Below, piece by piece: positions 1 to 13,220 of a stretch of DNA of 64,000 bases (position 1 is the stretch's first letter; every line of letters starts with the position of its first letter). Source of the DNA: an uncultured Rhizobium sp. (lineage in GTDB: Bacteria > Pseudomonadota > Alphaproteobacteria > Rickettsiales > UBA1997); the NCBI GenBank assembly GCA_964537735.1, contig CAZICL010000007.1, positions 9,768 to 73,767 of the forward strand. The letters are read 5' to 3'. The translations under genes were made by a program, and so were the position numbers. The notes below the pieces were generated by a model. The model saw nothing but the letters and a program-made list of their open reading frames with translations, did not search any database and had not been told where the DNA came from.

Positions 1-545
1 AATGCCGGCAGAAAATCTTTATTAACCAAATGCGACATTTCGTGAGCCATAATGCTGCGAATTGCATTTAAAAATCTTTTCGGCTCAGAACATTCAACTA
101 AGTAATGCTTGATTAAACCATGGGTCAGAACAATGGCTTTTTTGTTGAAGCTGCTGACTGCATAAGCATTTATTTCATCAGAATTTTTGATGTAGAGATG
201 AACATTTTTTTCGCCGAATCTGGTTTTCACCTGATCAAAAATATCACTTAAAAAATCATAATCTTTAATCTTCTCAAAACGACTGCATTTCTTAAGTGAA
301 GAACGTACTGAAAAACCTAAGAGAAAATCAAAAAATAAATAAACCAGCATCAAGAAACTGACCAAAAAAAACAGGAAACACAGTCCTAATTTCATCTTCT
401 GAAATAATCCGGCATTGATAGCAGAAGCATAGCCGCCGAAGTTAAATATGGGGATCAACACTACCATCAAAGGCAAGGCCAAAATTACGATATTAATCAC
501 CGTAATAACGTAAACGAGAATCAGATTAAATGGTTTTGAAAACAT
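1..545 (-). CDS. M48 (HtpX-like) membrane zinc metalloprotease, 3' end runs off the window
   Basis: Manual translation from ATG at 545: [13 protein letters not shown]..., two hydrophobic segments, then INAYAVS...IVLTHGL...[13 protein letters not shown] (HExxH). Not in the ORF track because it is truncated by the edge. Confidence 0.85.
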
Positions 546-638
546 GAATTTAGGGAAATTGTAAGAAACTTGTTTGAATTTTTGTTAGTCAGTTATTACT
601 TAAGCAACAAAATTTTCAATTCTTTAATCTTACTTCTT

Positions 639-1466
639 ATGCGCACGATCCAAATTCAAAATTTAAAAATCGCCAATAATCTTCCTTTCACTTTGATTGC
701 AGGACCTTGCCAGACCGAATCGATGGATCACAGCCTGATGATGGCCAGCAACATTAAAAGAATTTGCGACCAGCTGGGCATTAACTTTATTTACAAATCA
801 TCTTTCGACAAAGCTAACCGCTCAAGTATTGGTGGAGAGCGCGGCGCTGGTTTAGAAAAAACTTTGCCTATTTTTGCCGAAGTTAAAAAACAATTTAAAT
901 GTCCAATCATCACCGACATTCACAATGAAGAACATTGCCGCCTATTGGCTGATAATGATGCTGTTGATATTTTACAGGTTCCGGCGTTTTTATGTCGCCA
1001 AACTGACTTACTGGAAGCTGCTGCCAAAAGCGGCAAAGTTATTAATATCAAGAAAGGTCAGTTTTTAGCCCCTTGGGATGCAGCAAATATTGTCAAAAAA
1101 ATGGATCATTTCGGAAATCAAAATGTCATGTTGACCGAACGTGGCGTCAGCTTTGGTTACAATACTTTGATTTCTGACATGCGCTCATTACCAATCATGG
1201 CGAAAACCGGTTGTCCGGTAGTTTTTGATGCTACACATTCAGTGCAACAACCGGGAGGACTTGGCGGAGCCAGCGGTGGCCAACGTGAGTTTGTTGATAC
1301 TTTAGCTTCTGCTGCAGTTGCTGTTGGTGTTGCAGCTGTATTTATGGAAGTTCATCAAGATCCTGACAATGCTCCATCTGATGGACCATGCATGGTACGT
1401 TTGGATAATTTGGAAAAACTTTTAACCAAGCTAAAAAAATTAGACCAGGTCGCAAAAAATTCCTAA
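639..1466 (+). CDS. kdsA: KDO-8-phosphate synthase
   Basis: Motifs [45 protein letters not shown]. Likely start ATG 639 (track start 570). Confidence 0.97.
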
Positions 1467-1471
1467 ATTTT

Positions 1472-2146
1472 ATGAACACAGTATCGCATATCCTAGTTAT
1501 CGACGACGACACCCGCTTACGCAACCTTCTGGGACGTTTTTTAGAAGAAAGTGGATTCCAAGTTGTGCTTGCTAAAGACACTATTGAGGCAAGATCAGCC
1601 TTGTCTCAAACCAAGTTCGATGTACTGATCGTAGATGTGATGTTACCCGGCGAAACCGGAGTTGATTTTACCATCAACTTGCGACAATCATTACAAACCC
1701 CAATAATTATGCTGACTGCACGTGGTGAATTTGAGGATCGTATCAAAGGTTTGGAAGCTGGTGCTGACGATTATTTACAAAAACCTTTCGAGCCAAAAGA
1801 ACTGCTGCTGCGTATTAATAATATTTTAAAAAGATCAGGAAATTCTAATTCTGATGCCAATATTTGCCGCTTCGGTGACTTTACCTTTAACCTTACAGAT
1901 TCACGCTTGAAGAAGGATAATCAATTTGTTCATATCACTGATTCTGAAGCAAAAATTTTAGGAATTTTGTGCCGTGAAAAAGGCAAAGTAGTAAGTCGCG
2001 AAAAACTTTCCTCACTTTGCGGTGAAATTGACGAACGCAGTATTGACGTACAAATCACCCGCTTGCGCCGCAAGATTGAACAAAATCCAAAACAACCGCA
2101 TTATTTACAAACGGTCAGAAATCACGGCTACGTGCTGTACAGCTAA
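1472..2146 (+). CDS. OmpR-family response regulator, no adjacent kinase
   Basis: REC domain (VIDDD, DVMLPG, GADDYLQKPF) plus winged helix (RSIDVQITRLRRKIE, TVRNHGY). Confidence 0.9.
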   Translation: MNTVSHILVIDDDTRLRNLLGRFLEESGFQVVLAKDTIEARSALSQTKFDVLIVDVMLPGETGVDFTINLRQSLQTPIIMLTARGEFEDRIKGLEAGADDYLQKPFEPKELLLRINNILKRSGNSNSDANICRFGDFTFNLTDSRLKKDNQFVHITDSEAKILGILCREKGKVVSREKLSSLCGEIDERSIDVQITRLRRKIEQNPKQPHYLQTVRNHGYVLYS

Positions 2147-3288
2147 TTTATCAAATCCAGACAGGTAAAACGGTTCCTAATAAATTTAGCATAAGCTGTA
2201 CAATCTTGATATTGCTGCTTTGATAAGCCTAATGATTGTGGCGAATATTTCACTTTAAAGTGAGTAAAAATTGCTGCTAATTGCGTTGCATCAAAGTGGA
2301 TTTTTTGCAGTTGCTTTTTCGTAATAGAGTCAATTTTTTTTACATTTTCACTGACGCTAACTTTTTCACGATATTCCTGTAAACACTGTTGTGAAATTAT
2401 TTTTGGTAAAAACTTTTTAAACTCAGAAACTGTTTTTTCTGCAAAATCAGAACCTCCACTAAGCAATATTTTTTGCAAATTGGCCGCCGTCATTGTGGTC
2501 ACCGCGATCATCTCACCATGCAGTTTTTTTGCCGCAACTTGCGGATATTTCATCTCAATAATGTGAGCAATCAAATGCTCAGATTGGCTTGCCGGATAAG
2601 ACCCTCCAGCAATTGTCATGCCTTGCCCTGAAAGCAATAAAATTTCGATTAGCAATTTTAAAAATTCTTCATCTTGCAACGAAAATTGAGTAAAGTTTTT
2701 TACCAAATAATCCATTTCATCACACAAAATTTTAAAGGGTTTGGCGTCAAATTTTGTCCCTAAAATTTTGTGCGACAAATACCAATCAAACCAACAAGAA
2801 TAAAAACACAAACTGTCGCCAATTCCAGCTTTTGTAAGTCGTAAAGGAGCTGATTTTAAAATTTCCAAATCACAAAAAACCTGTTGTGGCAAGGTTGCCG
2901 GCAAAGTTTTTTTGTGGCCCTTAATTGTTATTGAGGCATTGCGTGACAAATAGCCATTCATCGATGGAGCCGAAGCAAAAATGGCATAAGGAATATTTTT
3001 TTGTGCTGAAGAATATTTACACAAATCATTAATGGTGCCGCTGCCAAGACCCAAAATAAAATCACAATCTTGCAACGCTGCAGCAATTTTTTTAAGATTC
3101 TTTTCGTCAGCTTTGGGGTCTTGCAAGATCAAGTTACAAGTGGTTTTTTCCAAAAAATTATGTGGGAAAAATTTTTTACAATTACGCCAAATCTTACTAT
3201 CGCTGACAAAAAGCACTTTTCCTTCAAATAGCTCTGAAGCGAGGATATCAGTGGCTAAACCACGAGAAATTTTTACGTTTTTAATCAT
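2143..3288 (-). CDS. sn-glycerol-1-phosphate dehydrogenase family (EgsA/AraM-like) metal-dependent dehydrogenase
   Basis: GLGSGTINDLCKY, SAPSMNGYLS, AGIGDS, SQSEHLIAH and LHGE match the G1PDH pattern (GxGxG..D..K; xSEH..xH; HGE). Confidence 0.75.
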   Translation of the reverse strand: MIKNVKISRGLATDILASELFEGKVLFVSDSKIWRNCKKFFPHNFLEKTTCNLILQDPKADEKNLKKIAAALQDCDFILGLGSGTINDLCKYSSAQKNIPYAIFASAPSMNGYLSRNASITIKGHKKTLPATLPQQVFCDLEILKSAPLRLTKAGIGDSLCFYSCWFDWYLSHKILGTKFDAKPFKILCDEMDYLVKNFTQFSLQDEEFLKLLIEILLLSGQGMTIAGGSYPASQSEHLIAHIIEMKYPQVAAKKLHGEMIAVTTMTAANLQKILLSGGSDFAEKTVSEFKKFLPKIISQQCLQEYREKVSVSENVKKIDSITKKQLQKIHFDATQLAAIFTHFKVKYSPQSLGLSKQQYQDCTAYAKFIRNRFTCLDLIN

Positions 3289-3296
3289 GAAAAAAC

Positions 3297-3330
3297 TTGT
3301 GAGATAAAATTGAATTCTTAAGTTGCGGCG
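3297..3330 (+). promoter_or_regulatory. putative sigma70 promoter of secG
   Basis: TTGTGA-N16-TAAGTT followed by GC-rich GCGGCG. The same architecture occurs upstream of acpP and rpsA. Confidence 0.55.
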
Positions 3331-3381
3331 TCTTTTAGGACTGTCTGTGCAGATCGCTTCAAATCAAATAATTTTCTTAAA

Positions 3382-3747
3382 ATGGAAAGTCTTCAAATTT
3401 TTCTGCTAATTTTGCAGGTTATTATCGCTATTGTGTTGATTGTTTTGGTGTTGCTCCAAAAATCCGACGGTGATTCTTTAAGCGGTATTGGTGGTGGATC
3501 AGGCGGCCTTAATTCTGTAATGTCAAGCAAAGCTTCAGCCAGTATTCTAACCAAAGTCACTATGGTTTTGATTGGAATTTTTATGCTCAACTGTTTGATT
3601 TTAGCTTCTATTTCCAACGCCTCAAAAAAAGCCATCCAAAAAGAATTGGAACAAACAATTGAGCAGCAAGAAAAAGCCGCTGACTCTGCTATACCAGCCG
3701 CCGAAGAAGCTATCAGCAAAACTCCAGCCGCTCCTAAAGTGGAATAA
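3382..3747 (+). CDS. secG: preprotein translocase subunit SecG
   Basis: Two TM helices with LVLLQKS.G....G.GGG and ILTKVT motifs. Confidence 0.93.
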   Translation: MESLQIFLLILQVIIAIVLIVLVLLQKSDGDSLSGIGGGSGGLNSVMSSKASASILTKVTMVLIGIFMLNCLILASISNASKKAIQKELEQTIEQQEKAADSAIPAAEEAISKTPAAPKVE

Positions 3748-3787
3748 TAAATAAGCTCCCACTTATCAAAGTTAAATTTTACAAATT

Positions 3788-4888
3788 ATGAAAATTACAG
3801 CTCTAAACCAAACTCACCGCGATCAAGGTGCTAAAATGGTAGAATTTGCCGGTTACGACATGCCGGTGCAATATCCAGATGGAATGCTTAAAGAACACGA
3901 ATGGACACGTTCGGGCAATGTCGGCATTTTCGACGTTTCACATATGGGTCAATTTGTCATCGAAGGTGAAGAAGTTGTAAAATTCCTTTCTCACATCACT
4001 CCAACCGATTTTTCTCTAAGCACTCCCGCCCTTGCTAAATATACAGTTTTGACCAATCCCCAAGGTGGAATTATTGATGATTTGATCATCACCAAACTAA
4101 CCGACACAAAATTTTTCATCGTTTTGAACGCCGGATGTAAAGAAAAAGACGCCGCTTGGATCATCAAAAATTTACCAGAAGGAATTTCTTTTATTGAACT
4201 TACTGATCGCTCATTGATAGCAGTTCAAGGCGGAAAAGCTGAAGAAATTCTCAACCGCTTTTTAGCCGAAAAAAATCTGGCTGACTTGCCTTACATGAAT
4301 CTTGGTGCTTACCAATTAAAAAACGGCGAAGAAGTTTTTATCAGCCGCACTGGCTATACTGGAGAAGATGGTTTTGAAGTTTCAATTAAAAATTCTGCTG
4401 CAGCAAAATTTTGGCTTGATTTGTCAGCACTTGAAGAAGTTAAGCCAATTGGCCTTGGCGCTCGTGATTCACTGCGTTTAGAAATGGGCTACCCACTTTA
4501 CGGACACGATTTGGACGACACAACTTCTCCAATCGAAGCTGCCTTGGGATGGGTTGTGAGCAAAAGCAACACCAGCTTCATCGGCTGCGAAAGAGTGTTG
4601 AAAGAAAAAGCTGAAGGCGCATCGCGCAAAAGAATCGGCGTCAAATTATTAGATCGCGGCATTGCTCGTGAAGGCACTGAGATCAGAAAAGACGGCAAAA
4701 AAATCGGCACACTTTCTAGCGGTGGATTTTCACCAAATTTGAAAGTCTCAATCGGTCAAGGCTATTTCGAAACAGCTTTGGTTAAGGTTGGAGACCAAGT
4801 TACTGCTATTGTGCGTGACCGTGAAATTCCTGCTATTTTGACTTCTCCAGTTTTTGTTGAAGCCAAAACAAAGTCGGTAAAAAAATAG
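3788..4888 (+). CDS. gcvT: glycine cleavage T protein
   Basis: FAGYDMPVQY, FDVSHMGQ, SRTGYTGEDGFE, GLGARDSLRLE. Confidence 0.97.
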   Translation: MKITALNQTHRDQGAKMVEFAGYDMPVQYPDGMLKEHEWTRSGNVGIFDVSHMGQFVIEGEEVVKFLSHITPTDFSLSTPALAKYTVLTNPQGGIIDDLIITKLTDTKFFIVLNAGCKEKDAAWIIKNLPEGISFIELTDRSLIAVQGGKAEEILNRFLAEKNLADLPYMNLGAYQLKNGEEVFISRTGYTGEDGFEVSIKNSAAAKFWLDLSALEEVKPIGLGARDSLRLEMGYPLYGHDLDDTTSPIEAALGWVVSKSNTSFIGCERVLKEKAEGASRKRIGVKLLDRGIAREGTEIRKDGKKIGTLSSGGFSPNLKVSIGQGYFETALVKVGDQVTAIVRDREIPAILTSPVFVEAKTKSVKK

Positions 4889-4951
4889 TTATAGCTTAGA
4901 TACTGTTAGCTAGCAGCGTCTAATCAATCAATAATAATCAAAGGAGTTAAA

Positions 4952-5317
4952 ATGAAATTTACTAAAGATCACGAATGGATCAAAATTGAAGGCGATGTTG
5001 CTACAATCGGAATTACCGAATATGCCGCTGAAGCCTTGGGCGAGTTGGTTTATGTTGAGCTTCCAAAAGTGGGTAACACTTACAAAGTTCACGACGCTTT
5101 TGCCGTTGTTGAATCTTCAAAATCAGCCAGCGACGTTTACATTCCTGTTGCCGGCGAAGTTGTTGCCATTAATGAAGCATTAAATTCACAACCAGAATTG
5201 GTTAACAATTCTTCTTACCATGAAGGCTGGATTGCCAAAGTTAAAATGAGCAACGCTGATGATTTAGCTGATGCAATGGATGAAGCTGCTTATAAAGAGT
5301 TTTTGAAAAATCAGTAA
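4952..5317 (+). CDS. gcvH: glycine cleavage H protein
   Basis: FTKDHEW, GITEYA, lipoyl motif VESSKSASD, EGWIAK. Confidence 0.97.
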   Translation: MKFTKDHEWIKIEGDVATIGITEYAAEALGELVYVELPKVGNTYKVHDAFAVVESSKSASDVYIPVAGEVVAINEALNSQPELVNNSSYHEGWIAKVKMSNADDLADAMDEAAYKEFLKNQ

Positions 5318-5334
5318 TTAGATATTTGAGATTG

Positions 5335-5369
5335 GGGGTCAGAACCAGAAATGGTCTGACCCCTTTTTT
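5335..5369 (+). terminator. intrinsic terminator after gcvTH
   Basis: GGGGTCAGA...TCTGACCCC stem followed by TTTTTT, between convergent gcvH and pth. Confidence 0.8.
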
Positions 5370-5373
5370 ATTT

Positions 5374-5940
5374 CTAGCCTACCCTTCCCATCTCATTCAT
5401 AAATTTATCGGCTCGTCCTTCCAACAATTCTTCGAACAAATCGGAGATTTTTAGATTTATTTTTCCCACCAACATCATCTCATCTTTTGTGAATTTTCCT
5501 AAAACATAATCGGAAATTTCAAACTCTTTATTTTCTGGTCGACCAATTCCTAAACGTAAACGCATATATTGCTTATCCATATGTGCATCCAGAGACTTCA
5601 AACCATTATGTCCGGCATTTCCACCACCAACTTTAACCTTCACCTTTCCTAAAGGCAGATCCAAATCGTCGTGAAAAACTAAAATATTTTTCGACTCAAT
5701 TTTATAAAAATTTGCCGCTTCAGCAACTGGAATTCCAGAACGATTCATAAAGCTATGCGGCTTTAAGGCGATGATTTTATGACCAGCAATAACACCAGAA
5801 AAAACTTCACTCTTAAATTTTTTTGACTGTGCCACTAATCCAAAATCAGCAATTATTTGATCGAGCAGCAAAAAACCAAAATTATGGCGGGTGGTTTCAT
5901 ATTCTTGGCCAATATTTCCAAGACCGACTAGCAAATACAT
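5374..5940 (-). CDS. pth: peptidyl-tRNA hydrolase
   Basis: LVGLGN, TRHNFGF, HDDLD, GGNAGHNGLKS, RLRLGIGRP. Confidence 0.97.
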   Translation of the reverse strand: MYLLVGLGNIGQEYETTRHNFGFLLLDQIIADFGLVAQSKKFKSEVFSGVIAGHKIIALKPHSFMNRSGIPVAEAANFYKIESKNILVFHDDLDLPLGKVKVKVGGGNAGHNGLKSLDAHMDKQYMRLRLGIGRPENKEFEISDYVLGKFTKDEMMLVGKINLKISDLFEELLEGRADKFMNEMGRVG

Positions 5941-9112: not shown

Positions 9113-9198
9113 GAATTTGTGACCAAAATTTTAATCGGCAAAAAGCTGCAATCTTAAATTGCTTTGAAAGGCGCGACACTTTATTTTCACGATCTTGT

Positions 9199-9603
9199 AA
9201 GGCAAGTGGATGATCGCTGGTTTTAATGGTAACATTTGAAAACTAGAGGAAAGTCCGGACTCCCCGCCAGAAACGATACCAGCTAACGGCTGGCCACGTT
9301 GGCCTGAATTTATAGGGCCATTGAGGGAAAGTGTCACAGAGAATATACCGCCCGCTTACGCTCTTTGAGCTACAGCGCGGTAAGGGTGAAAACGCGAGGT
9401 AAGAGCTCACGCGCTTTCGTGGTAACACGAATTTGGAAAAACCCTATCGGGAGCAAGACCAAATAAAATAGTGGTTCGGCAACGAACAATGCTCTGGCGC
9501 ATGCTATTGTGGTAGGTTGCTTGAGGTTAACAGCGATGTTAATCCCAGATGAATGATCGTCTTTTGAGAAATCAAAAACAAAATCCGGCTTATAGCTTGC
9601 CTT
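9199..9603 (+). ncRNA. rnpB: RNase P RNA, class A
   Basis: GAGGAAAGTCCGGACT, GAAAGTGTCACAGAGAA, GGTAAGGGTGAAA, GAGCAAGACCAAAT and AAATCCGGCTTAT are all present. P1 is closed by AAGGCAAG (9199) and CTTGCCTT (9603). Confidence 0.96.
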
Positions 9604-9610
9604 ACATTAC

Positions 9611-9688: not shown

Positions 9689-10477
9689 ATGCTTACTACC
9701 AACGAAATTCGCACAAAATTTCTTAATTATTTTGCGCGCCATGGCCATGAAATTCTGCCATCAAGCCCTTTGATTCCGCATAATGATCCCACTTTGATGT
9801 TCACCAATGCCGGCATGAATCAGTTCAAAAATTATTTCACCGGTGTGGAAATTCCCAAATTCAAACGTGCTACCACCTCACAAAAATGTGTACGTGCCGG
9901 CGGCAAACATAATGATCTCGACAATGTTGGCTATACTGCACGCCATCATACTTTTTTTGAGATGTTGGGAAATTTTTCCTTCGGCGATTATTTTAAAGAA
10001 GAAGCAATCTTTTTTGCTTGGGAACTTTTAACTAAAGAATTTGGCATCAATGCCGACAAGCTTTTGGTCACAGTTTATCACAATGATGACGAAGCTGCTC
10101 AATTGTGGAAAAAAATTGCTGGTCTGCCGGAAGAAAAAATTATTCGCATCGCCACTGATGATAACTTTTGGTCAATGGGTGAAGTTGGACCTTGTGGCCC
10201 ATGCTCAGAAATTTTCTTCGATCACGGTGATAAAATTTTTGGCGGCGTACCCGGAAGTAAAGATCAAGATGGTGATCGTTATATTGAAATTTGGAATTTG
10301 GTTTTTATGCAATTTGAAAAGCATAAAGATGGAAAAATGACACCATTGCCTAAACCATGCATTGACACCGGAATGGGCCTAGAACGTGTGACTTCTGTGT
10401 TGCAAGGCGTTCATGATAATTATGAAACTGATAGTTTTAAAAAGCTGATCGCTGAAGTTGAAAAAATTATTGTTTAG
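9689..10477 (+). CDS. alaS: alanyl-tRNA synthetase N-terminal catalytic domain only (262 aa); truncated or split gene
   Basis: [51 protein letters not shown] and IDTGMGLER are intact. TAG at 10475-10477, and no alaS continuation was found in any frame before the convergent ankyrin gene. Confidence 0.9.
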
Positions 10478-10528
10478 CCTGCTATTTCGAGAATCTTAAA
10501 CCTAAATAATAATCTCTTGCGAGCTTAT

Positions 10529-11623
10529 TTACTGGCTTCGACTGTCACCTTGCTCTCTCGCCTCTTTGGCCATTTTTTCCAGAATATATTCCACCCAAGA
10601 AAAATTTCCCGATCCGTCACCACCCTGCCCAACTTGTGTCTGTGCTGATCCCACATGATCAACAATATTTTCCATCGCAGCACTTTCACCTCGAACTCGC
10701 GATTTAGTATCAACATTGGCATGATAAGAAACTGTAGATGCCATCGTCACATTGCCACTATCAACAGCTTGCTGCAAAATGCTTCTACCATCTTTAGCAA
10801 TTGTATTAACATTAGCACCGGCAGCAATCATGGCACTGGCACCAGCAACATTACCTTGCACCACCGCTTCTGACAATTCTTCTTCTTTAGTTCTATTGGC
10901 CGGAGAATCACCACGCATAGCCCGCACCACACCTTTGAGCAATGATCCCATTTTGCCGCCATTTTCTTCCACACAAGATGAGAGTTTTTGATGTCCACCA
11001 AGGCTGGCAATATCGCGCACGGTCATGCCATGCTTATTCTCAGCATTAATTTCAACACCTTCATCAATCAAAAATTTCATCATCTTGTCATTCACACCTA
11101 TTGCCGCAGCGAAATGTGCCAAGTTATTTCCAGTGGCAGATTTAAAATTAACTTCAGCGCCAACTTTAATTAATTGCTTGGTTTCCTTTTGATCACGACC
11201 ACCAGTCAGTGAAGCAGCAAGAGGGTTTAAAGACGGGTCATCTTTACTAAAATCATTTAGTTCTTCGACGCCAAAACCACATTTTTTGTGAAACTGCAAA
11301 CATTCTTGCATCGGTTTATTGGAAGCGCAGGAAATAATAAAAACCTCACGCGCAATATCACCCATCCTTTCTGCACTGACATCCTTAGACAGCTCTTTGG
11401 AATATTTTTGCAAACGGTGTTCCATGCCATTTAAAATAGCCTTTTGGTCTTTGTTCAAATCGGAATAATCAAACTGCAAACTATCGGCAAATTTTTTGAC
11501 ATCTTTTACTTGTAAACCATCAAAATCCGAAGATTTACCACCGAATCCAAATGCTGGATTTTCCTGCATTTGCGGCTCTTCAGTTTTAACACCACCAAAA
11601 ATTTTACTAAAAAATCCTGCCAT
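10529..11623 (-). CDS. ankyrin-repeat protein, effector-like
   Basis: GNNLAHFAAAIG, GMTVRDIASLGGH, GANVN...GRSILQQAVDSGN. Charged tail SWVEYILEKMAKEAREQGDSRSQ. Likely start ATG 11623. Confidence 0.85.
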   Translation of the reverse strand: MAGFFSKIFGGVKTEEPQMQENPAFGFGGKSSDFDGLQVKDVKKFADSLQFDYSDLNKDQKAILNGMEHRLQKYSKELSKDVSAERMGDIAREVFIISCASNKPMQECLQFHKKCGFGVEELNDFSKDDPSLNPLAASLTGGRDQKETKQLIKVGAEVNFKSATGNNLAHFAAAIGVNDKMMKFLIDEGVEINAENKHGMTVRDIASLGGHQKLSSCVEENGGKMGSLLKGVVRAMRGDSPANRTKEEELSEAVVQGNVAGASAMIAAGANVNTIAKDGRSILQQAVDSGNVTMASTVSYHANVDTKSRVRGESAAMENIVDHVGSAQTQVGQGGDGSGNFSWVEYILEKMAKEAREQGDSRSQ

Positions 11624-11642: not shown

Positions 11643-13220
11643 CTATTTAATTTTTTCTTCGACCAGTTTGATAAAATTTTCAATGCCAAAAAGAACAATA
11701 AAAGAGCCCATGCGTGGGCCTTGGTCTTGTCCTAAAAGAATTTGGTAAAGTGCTAAAAACCAATCGCGCATATTCTTTTCATAACCGTGATTTTTGCCAA
11801 TTTGAAAAACTAAATTTTGCAATAAAGCACCGTCATTTTTTTGCTCATCAGTGGCATTTTTTAATGCTGCAACAAGCTCAGCAAGTGCTGATTTTTCGGC
11901 ATCAGTTCCTTGGCGATATTGTTTATTTTTCTTGATGAAGTCATTGTAATAAGCAATTGCACAACCAACCATTTTAGCCAAAAGTGGTGAATTTTCTGGC
12001 GTTAAACCAGATTGATATTTTGAAATGAAACCCCACAAAACTGCATCATTTTCAGGGTTACAAGCCGATGCTAAGTTAAGTAAAAGTGAGTAGCTTAAAT
12101 TAAAGTTAATCGCCGGAATTTTTCCTTCATGAATGTGGAAAGCTGGATTATCAAGCTTTGCCGCCTCTTCCTGATTGGCAAAACTTTGAGCAAAAGCCAA
12201 ATATTCATCAGATGCTTTTGGGATCACATCAAAATATAAACGCTTTGCTGTCTTGGGTTTTTGATACATAAAAAGCGCCATCGATTCAGATGGAGCATAT
12301 TTCAACCATTCTTCAACCGAGATGCCGTTGCCTTTTGATTTAGAAATTTTTTCGCCATTGTCCGACAAAAACATTTCGTAAGTGAAGTTCACCGGAGGTA
12401 TGCCACCTAAAATTTTGCACACTTGGCGATAAATTTTTTCGTTAGGTTGATGATCTTTACCATAAATTTCGTAATCAACACCAAGTGAATACCAGCGTGC
12501 CCCGAAGTCGATCTTCCATTGCAATTTACAATTGCCACCAGTCACAGAAATTTCTTTTTCAACTCCATTTCCATCAACATAAATTACGGTTTGACGTTCT
12601 TTATTGACTCCTTTCACACCTTTATCAATCACCATGCCCGACTCTTGATCAATTGGCATAAATGGCGAATAAGTTTCCTGACGTTCTGCTCCAAGAGTTG
12701 GCAACATTAGCTCCATCAACTCTTCATATTTTTCTAAAACACGAAGCATCGTGCTGTCAAAAGCACCGGATTTATATTTTTCAGTGGCGCTGATAAATTC
12801 ATATTGAAAACCAAAGCCATCAAGAAAGCCGCGCAAACGGGCATTCATATTGTGGCCGTAAGATTCGTGAGTTCCGAAAGGATCGGGAACTGAAGTTAAA
12901 GGCCTACCTAAATTTGCTCTGATTAAATCTTGTTGCGGCAAATTATCCGGCACTTTGCGCAAGCCATCAATATCGTCAGAAACACAAAACATCTTAGTAG
13001 GAATTTCCGGCGCAATTAATGAAAAAGCGTGACGCACAAAAGATGTACGCACCACTTCACCAAAAGTTCCAATATGTGGCAAGCCAGATGGGCCATAGCC
13101 GGTTTCAAAAAGCACGTAACCTTTAGCCGGAGTTTTGCCGCCAATTTTTTCTAAAATTCTGCGTGCTTCTTCAAACGGCCAAGCTTTTGATTCGAGATAA
13201 GATTTGTGAGAGATTGTCAT
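11643..13220 (-). CDS. lysS: class I lysyl-tRNA synthetase
   Basis: GYGPSGLPHIGT (HIGH), KLQWKIDF, YGKDH, KISKSKGN, QGPRMGSF. Confidence 0.96.
   Translation of the reverse strand: MTISHKSYLESKAWPFEEARRILEKIGGKTPAKGYVLFETGYGPSGLPHIGTFGEVVRTSFVRHAFSLIAPEIPTKMFCVSDDIDGLRKVPDNLPQQDLIRANLGRPLTSVPDPFGTHESYGHNMNARLRGFLDGFGFQYEFISATEKYKSGAFDSTMLRVLEKYEELMELMLPTLGAERQETYSPFMPIDQESGMVIDKGVKGVNKERQTVIYVDGNGVEKEISVTGGNCKLQWKIDFGARWYSLGVDYEIYGKDHQPNEKIYRQVCKILGGIPPVNFTYEMFLSDNGEKISKSKGNGISVEEWLKYAPSESMALFMYQKPKTAKRLYFDVIPKASDEYLAFAQSFANQEEAAKLDNPAFHIHEGKIPAINFNLSYSLLLNLASACNPENDAVLWGFISKYQSGLTPENSPLLAKMVGCAIAYYNDFIKKNKQYRQGTDAEKSALAELVAALKNATDEQKNDGALLQNLVFQIGKNHGYEKNMRDWFLALYQILLGQDQGPRMGSFIVLFGIENFIKLVEEKIK

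Follow-up and report, generated by a model that had tools for sequence, protein, structure and literature searches.

Two genes on different contigs, alaS-alpha and alaS-beta, very likely together encode the alanyl-tRNA synthetase (AlaRS) of this uncultured member of the Rickettsiales. Judged from their sequences, they are a genuine bacterial two-gene AlaRS whose break lies at a new position, at the end of the catalytic core. AlaRS is said to retain a four-module, single-chain "prototype structure" throughout biology, with the Nanoarchaeota as the lone split exception (PMC10036535); we found no bacterial split alaS in the literature, in which the papers on split AlaRS that we found concern Nanoarchaeota only. 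The stretch of DNA analyzed here, called the window, is 64,000 nucleotides long (G000:C7:9768-73767) and belongs to a metagenome-assembled genome of 1.71 Mb in 19 contigs that is 97% complete. The original prediction, having noted an alaS gene that stops early, listed four explanations and chose none; a split essential gene is the one that stands, while a paralogue, a partial duplication and a misassembly fall away on the evidence given below.

Results

The Two Chains and Their Break Point

alaS-alpha occupies 9689..10477 on the forward strand, from an ATG to a TAG stop that is included in this interval, and was delimited by the list of open reading frames, a Pfam match, alignments and an AF2 model. 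Its 262-aa product ends just after the aminoacylation catalytic domain, as had been predicted: residues 6-260 match positions 1-257 of the 552 in the tRNA-synt_2c profile (PF01411; Pfam, E 2.1e-124), and residues 3-260 align at ~66% identity with chain positions 3-269 of the Escherichia coli AlaRS structure 3hxu. The class II motifs, said at the outset to be intact, are so, motifs 1-3 of the AlaRS type being present together with the alanine/ATP pocket. The motif 2 region (residues 85-103; 9941..9997, forward strand) is the same as that of E. coli, and most of its columns are invariant among 32 aligned sequences; the motif 3 region, IDTGMGLER (residues 225-233; 10361..10387, forward strand), is conserved with it in the alignment to 3hxu, as are the active-site stretches. 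The last 16 residues (247-262; 10427..10474, forward strand) align to E. coli ~256-271 and contain a helix, assigned by DSSP to residues 248-261 of the AF2 model, that closes the chain and is the last element before the break. The TAG stop (10475..10477, forward strand) falls where, in an unsplit AlaRS, a linker joins the catalytic core to the helical subdomain for tRNA recognition, and a stop, either TAA or TAG, is found at the matching place in all congeners. The AF2 model (pLDDT 83.8, pTM 0.85, with low confidence confined to loops 29-41 and 68-83) superimposes on the core of 3hxu with a TM score of 0.91, and by this model alpha appears to be a self-contained class II catalytic domain. Identity is 69-86% to alphaproteobacterial sequences and only 23-25% to archaeal AlaRS structures; by this measure the chain is of the bacterial, alphaproteobacterial type.

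Nothing downstream of the stop continues the enzyme. The 51-nt spacer between the convergent stops (10478..10528) holds no AlaRS homology, repeat element or intron/ribozyme signal, and no repeat or mobile element marks the alpha stop in this genome. The ground that the rest of alaS would cover is taken up instead by the convergent ankyrin-repeat gene that the original prediction had described (10529..11623, reverse strand; matches to Ank_2, Ank_4 and Ank_3, with Ank_2 at E 9.6e-10); read from the ATG at 11623 it encodes 364 aa, and its longest open reading frame begins at a TTG at 11698. The remainder of alaS is, as predicted, missing from the window, which contains no AlaRS piece other than alpha. 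Beyond the ankyrin gene a 525-aa open reading frame (11643-13220, reverse strand) looks like a class I lysyl-tRNA synthetase gene, lysS, an assignment made without a family search, from a reading of the sequence and from an orthologue beside alpha in genome G054; the alpha-lysS adjacency is kept between genera g1 and g31, with the orientation of alpha inverted. On the other side, 80 nt 5′ of alpha, lies rnpB (9198..9608, forward strand), a full-length match to Rfam RF00010 at 247 bits. This RNase P RNA is of bacterial class A, and spurious open reading frames are called across 9198-9608.

A search of the whole genome with PF01411 hit exactly two places, alpha (profile positions 1-258) and a 617-aa open frame on contig C5 (positions 271-551), the latter also matched by the tRNA_SAD editing-domain model. 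Looking through the genome for an orphan 3′ part of alaS, a check suggested with the original prediction, thus yielded a 612-aa open reading frame with its own ATG and with its editing motifs present. This gene, alaS-beta (G000:C5:129316-131154, on the same strand as alpha), starts five codons past an in-frame stop, lies 65 nt 3′ of an RNase J-like gene and is followed by glmM. Besides the PF01411 segment it carries the editing domain (tRNA_SAD, E 5e-18) and C-Ala (DHHA1, E 2e-7). Residues 4-169 align to E. coli chain positions 279-437, and the chain opens at the next helix of the canonical enzyme, KIIADHLRSS. Both residues that read the G3:U70 pair of tRNA-Ala are on beta: Asn27, within LPSNEGRGYVLRR (beta 24-36), corresponds to E. 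coli N303, and the Asp of LYDTYGFP (beta 129-136) to D400. The zinc motifs of the editing domain are intact (HSATH, 285-289; CGGTH, 386-390), and the Gly-rich C-Ala motif is also present.

Alpha therefore covers approximately E. coli 1-271 and beta E. coli 276 onward, and together they amount to 262 + 612 = 874 aa. In place of the single polypeptide that marks a bacterial AlaRS, there are two separately started and terminated open reading frames, one on C7 and one on C5, and only a linker of ~8 residues (E. coli ~271-279) has given way to a stop and a start. Among fused relatives in the alignment this linker varies in sequence and length and carries indels. Synteny with two congeners indicates that the end of C5 adjoins the start of C7, which would put beta ~21-22 kb upstream of alpha and ~12 kb before the start of the window.

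Such figures bear on the idea that a split intein, RNA trans-splicing or read-through makes one chain again out of the two products or their transcripts. Mechanisms of this kind exist for some split genes elsewhere. The summed length of alpha and beta is already canonical, however, and leaves no room for intein halves; in-frame read-through of the alpha TAG yields no AlaRS-like peptide before the next stop; rnpB is the sole Rfam match at either locus, with no intron or ribozyme; and in relatives the two genes are 9-381 kb apart, sometimes on opposite strands. We consider rejoining very improbable.

Neither this genome, at 97% completeness, nor any other high-quality genome sampled from the clade was found to have a full-length alaS. 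One fused alaS fragment, on a small contig of genome G113, looks like contamination. Both tRNA-Ala genes of the genome keep G3:U70 and A73.

Distribution and Selection of the Split

Complete alpha frames of 260-325 aa are present in 80 of the 121 genomes sampled from the family, and separate beta frames of ~590-710 aa accompany them. Comparison with relatives, likewise suggested at the outset, hence places the two-gene state in nine genera (g1, g20, g22, g24, g26, g28, g30, g31 and g33); a tenth genus, g32, has a copy truncated at the end of its contig. The same two pieces occur in all 24 congeners first sampled; in 16 other families of the order a single gene encodes 865-954 aa. Across a wider set of 141 genomes from 38 families of the order, the core-end break is confined to this one family, the other families having one gene of 840-955 aa wherever the frame is uncut by a contig end. 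All of the genomes compared are metagenome-assembled.

Because the genome of the window is itself a 19-contig metagenome assembly, one might suspect a binning error or a chimeric junction after codon 262. Stand-alone alpha chains, nearly all of them 259-267 aa long, nevertheless form more than 120 clusters at 90% identity, drawn from NCBI, JGI, ENA and Logan under the names "alanyl-tRNA synthetase" or "hypothetical protein", and the stop recurs at the same position in these clusters, which come from independent projects, and in 80 genomes. Alpha lies 19 kb inside a 128-kb contig in our genome, and alpha and beta share a contig in nine others (G002, G004, G012, G054, G066, G075, G076, G084 and G110), so that binning artefacts are ruled out and the chance of any assembly artefact is negligible. 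On these contigs the two genes are 22-42 kb apart in g1, with beta upstream of alpha, and 8.7 kb apart in G054; wider spacings are seen in G076 (129 kb, on opposite strands) and G066 (381 kb).

In a 48-row tree of concatenated AlaRS sequences the split taxa group together with an SH-aLRT of 100, and the stem of this clade is long, at 0.37, a pattern that indicates one origin. Fission would have happened once, in the ancestor of some ten genera of one family, within the variable ~8-residue linker. Pairwise comparisons give alpha a dN/dS of 0.02-0.06 and beta one of 0.10-0.25; with dS saturated these ratios are rough, and both are far below 1. Both chains are evidently under purifying selection. 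A split essential gene is what the original prediction had placed first, and it gains from each of these observations: the orphan 3′ part has its own start, the arrangement is clade-wide, and selection appears to maintain it.

The same observations leave almost no room for the view that alpha is a gene in decay, or the product of a recent partial duplication, in an organism that has a full alaS elsewhere or receives the function from a host. A Rickettsiales-like lifestyle, to which the ankyrin proteins point, would suit such a reading, and reduced genomes do gather broken genes. Against it, a full-length alaS is absent from this genome and from dozens of congeners, which likewise tells against the stand-alone paralogue and the recent duplication named by the original prediction, and a remnant would scarcely show the low dN/dS of alpha or be kept over about ten genera in which alpha identity falls to 68%.

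The neighborhoods of the two genes differ from those of fused relatives. Fused outgroups mostly have recA upstream of alaS; in our genome recA is on contig C17, and the flanks of alpha and beta have no match to the recA-alaS context of the fused relatives. The beta-glmM adjacency is widespread in the split clade and is absent beside every fused or second-site gene (see below) that we examined. In G054, whose genus g31 falls in a basal branch of the split clade, alpha and beta follow one another in natural order on the same strand (locus L109, G054:C1:107500-123500), and their 8.7-kb gap is filled by six opposite-strand housekeeping genes that are contiguous on contig C2 in G000. There lysS stands beside alpha and glmM beside beta, as in the genus of the window, and the arrangement of G054 may be near the original state.

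Of the columns that are invariant in 32 other AlaRS, just two carry a replacement shared by all 15 split-clade sequences, FYAESGGQ to FYATSGGQ (beta 222-229; G000:C5:129979-130002) and LRFDF to FTFDF (beta 315-319; G000:C5:130258-130272), and both are in the beta-barrel/editing part. The same comparison turned up no clade-specific substitutions near the junction that would mark a new interface.

Two oddities were met in individual genomes. The beta gene of G045, of genus g22 (locus L120, G045:C5:29800-32500, at 395-2416), has a lone in-frame TAA at about residue 173, between KENWVR and GEEKED, at the boundary of the aminoacylation and editing modules. No start codon follows nearby, so that we did not count this as a third break; a sequencing error, read-through or incipient decay could account for it. 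In G006, 2.5 kb downstream of alpha, a 28-aa look-alike of alpha residues 230-257 (G006:C13:5048-5131; 71% identity) could be what remains of a local duplication.

A Second Break Point in Related Genera

A different break, near residue 385, occurs in relatives of the split clade. It separates an alpha′ chain of 377-394 aa, which is the core plus most of the helical subdomain with the Asn reader kept, from a beta′ chain of ~500-566 aa, which starts 10-20 residues before LYDTYGFP. It is held by eight of the nine sampled genomes of genus g19, by G059 (g21), by G052 (g29) and by G238, a member of another family. The Asn reader is on alpha′ and the Asp motif on beta′ in G042, G057, G069, G079, G094, G099, G104, G108, G059, G052 and G238. 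The in-family loci studied were L099, L110 (G108), L097/L140, L098/L141, L149/L150 and L151/L152 in g19, L102/L142 in G059 and L143/L144 in G052; in these, alpha′ measures 377-392 aa and beta′ 530-566 aa. On the tree the second-site genomes are interleaved with the fused sisters G065, G044/G071 and G088, so that at least four changes of state are needed, and an AU test rejects a single in-family second-site clade (delta lnL 759, p 7e-72), the group tested having been named after the tree was seen.

In three genomes, G099, G108 and G238, the two halves are adjacent with genes between them. The G099 locus (L099, G099:C15:20000-27500, alpha′ to beta′ at 1483-5681) contains an insert (L099 3153-4436, reverse strand) with genes for an NTase-substrate-binding/HepT-like protein, a nucleotidyltransferase and a GNAT acetyltransferase. 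In G099 and G108 alike the halves are 1.4 kb apart and the insert consists of a nucleotidyltransferase/HEPN-like pair and a GNAT gene; it looks like a toxin-antitoxin-type cassette lodged exactly at the break. The G238 split (family f23; L145, G238:C9:14200-20000, at 388-4006) has a 943-nt spacer with a 313-aa open reading frame that encodes a hydrophobic segment and a Lys-rich tail, and the short alpha′ frame is absent in the other six sampled members of f23.

The sole fused alaS of g19, a 950-aa frame in G088 (L100, G088:C76, 1445-4294, reverse strand), is longer by ~40 residues precisely where the second break falls. Two halves may have been re-fused here across a former intergenic spacer, or a loop may have expanded before fission took place. 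The in-family alpha′ chains all end in EEIEKYY plus a few residues (L097, L098, L099, L102, L110, L143, L149 and L151). This motif is missing in the fused sisters, of which G044 has EEVEKFL, and its holders span three genera; the shared ends could reflect either convergence or common ancestry. Taking both sites together, we lean, by a narrow margin, toward the view that AlaRS fractures repeatedly at module boundaries in this order, once at the end of the core (in about ten genera) and several times independently between the readers, with inserts and a possible re-fusion along the way.

Discussion

The complement of domains in the two genes suggests how the pair would work. Alpha, as a complete class II core, would make the alanyl-adenylate and move alanine to A76, and the rest would come from beta: its two tRNA-recognition subdomains, helical and alpha/beta, which hold both G3:U70 readers, its editing domain and its C-Ala. 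The chains most likely associate non-covalently along the interface between core and helical subdomain, which is intramolecular in an ordinary AlaRS. The C-terminal helix of alpha would pack against the helical subdomain of beta, and C-Ala would dimerise the pair to give (alpha-beta)2; neither chain bears an added docking module. Physical association, stoichiometry and activity are what we infer. N-terminal fragments of E. coli AlaRS shorter than 442 residues do not charge tRNA (PMC11392972), and alpha, which is far shorter, should accordingly depend wholly on reconstitution in trans for its activity.

There is a slim chance that the chains have separate functions and form no obligate complex, alpha alone activating alanine for another or a relaxed acceptor and beta being a trans-editing or tRNA-binding factor. 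The alpha chain of Nanoarchaeum equitans is weakly active alone, independently of G3:U70, and charges minihelices (PMC11392972), free-standing editing homologues (AlaX) and mini-AlaRS exist, and there are genera in which alpha and beta are unlinked, with 129-381 kb between them or with opposite orientations. This genome, however, has no other source of AlaRS. Alpha lacks the G3:U70 readers, yet both tRNA-Ala genes keep G3:U70; beta begins exactly where alpha ends and keeps an acceptor-stem module that is useless without a catalytic core; and charging is impossible for the short E. coli fragments. A two-chain AlaRS is, in our judgment, much the better account.

The closest parallel is the split AlaRS of the Nanoarchaeota, which also consists of two unlinked genes, an N-part and a C-part, with no domain lost. 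[quoted passage not shown] Those, however, are archaeal enzymes of hyperthermophilic archaeal symbionts, whereas the enzyme described here is bacterial, and the break differs too. By that paper's own mapping, the N. equitans enzyme is broken near E. coli residue 368 (PMC11392972), so that the break falls between the two readers, the U70-reading Asn staying on alpha and the G3-reading Asp motif on beta; here the break comes ~100 residues earlier, at E. coli ~271-279, which reduces alpha to the catalytic core and leaves beta with both readers. The suggestion in the original prediction that N. equitans is split near this same boundary was therefore off by ~100 residues and one structural subdomain (E. 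coli ~368 as against ~271-279). It is the second-site break of the sister genera, and not the core-end break, that shows the Nanoarchaeum topology. Since other families of the order are fused at the core-end site, the fission is independent of the archaeal one, and the sequences speak against common descent with it.

Separately encoded modules are familiar among the aminoacyl-tRNA synthetases, as in the two-chain LeuRS of Aquifex aeolicus, the catalytic and editing ThrRS proteins of crenarchaea and free-standing AlaX, and fragments of such split or modular synthetases can complement each other. To our knowledge in none of them is the catalytic core of AlaRS cut off from the whole of its tRNA-recognition apparatus, and we know of no earlier natural case in which the active site of AlaRS shares its chain with none of the tRNA-identity readers. 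AlaX and mini-AlaRS differ in being additions to, or reductions of, a full AlaRS, not the two halves of the sole one. A mini-AlaRS is on record from Tupanvirus (PMC10036535).

The bacterial glycyl-tRNA synthetase (GlyRS) offers another likeness, with a small catalytic alpha subunit (~280-300 aa) and a large tRNA-binding beta subunit in an (alpha-beta)2 heterotetramer, the same division of labor at the level of the gene. Once all AlaRS entries are set aside, the best fold match of our alpha chain is the GlyRS alpha subunit (TM 0.50-0.56), and published work relates this subunit to the AlaRS core and a portion of the GlyRS beta subunit to AlaRS Mid1. In the numbering of Archaeoglobus fulgidus AlaRS, Mid1 is 258-419 and Mid2 420-484 (PMC8464048); residue 6 of beta aligns to A. 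fulgidus 338, and the last helix of alpha is therefore probably at the start of Mid1. GlyRS is nonetheless a different enzyme, in which the two-gene arrangement is ancient and universal; the motif-3 helix is followed by ~100 further residues in GlyQ but by only 14 in AlaRS-alpha, and alpha has no significant sequence similarity to the GlyQ of this genome. We regard the likeness as an analogy in division of labor and not as a shared break point.

Dispersal of related genes is not limited to alaS in this genome. The glyQ and glyS genes, usually adjacent in bacteria, are both present and unlinked (G000:C2:38105-38947 and G000:C3:121913-123613, each on the reverse strand), and carB also exists as two unlinked genes, one for the N-half with ATP-grasp and oligomerisation domains (578-aa frame; G000:C3:68194-69330, reverse strand) and one for the C-half with ATP-grasp and MGS domains (545-aa frame; G000:C9:51446-52549, reverse strand). 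The lineage thus seems to tolerate gene fission and the dispersal of genes that are normally neighbors.

Annotation pipelines label alpha "hypothetical" or a truncated alaS, and marker-gene and completeness tools may mis-score this clade. What the pair would add is a bacterial, clade-wide and evidently functional AlaRS split at a new position, one that leaves catalysis to the first chain and assigns all reading of tRNA identity, proofreading and dimerisation to the second. It is a natural counterpart to the E. coli fragment work on the minimal pieces needed for adenylation, charging and G3:U70 recognition, and would be a pair that selection has tuned for function in trans. Having both core-end and second-site splits within reach allows comparison with GlyRS and bears on the modular assembly of early synthetases. 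If repeated fracture at module boundaries proves true, the clade would be a living series of intermediates in the splitting of AlaRS, with some of the second breaks caught in the act, and this series would be relevant to the question of how class II synthetases with two subunits, GlyRS among them, could originate from single chains or revert to them, and of how a separate chain can provide recognition of the acceptor stem.
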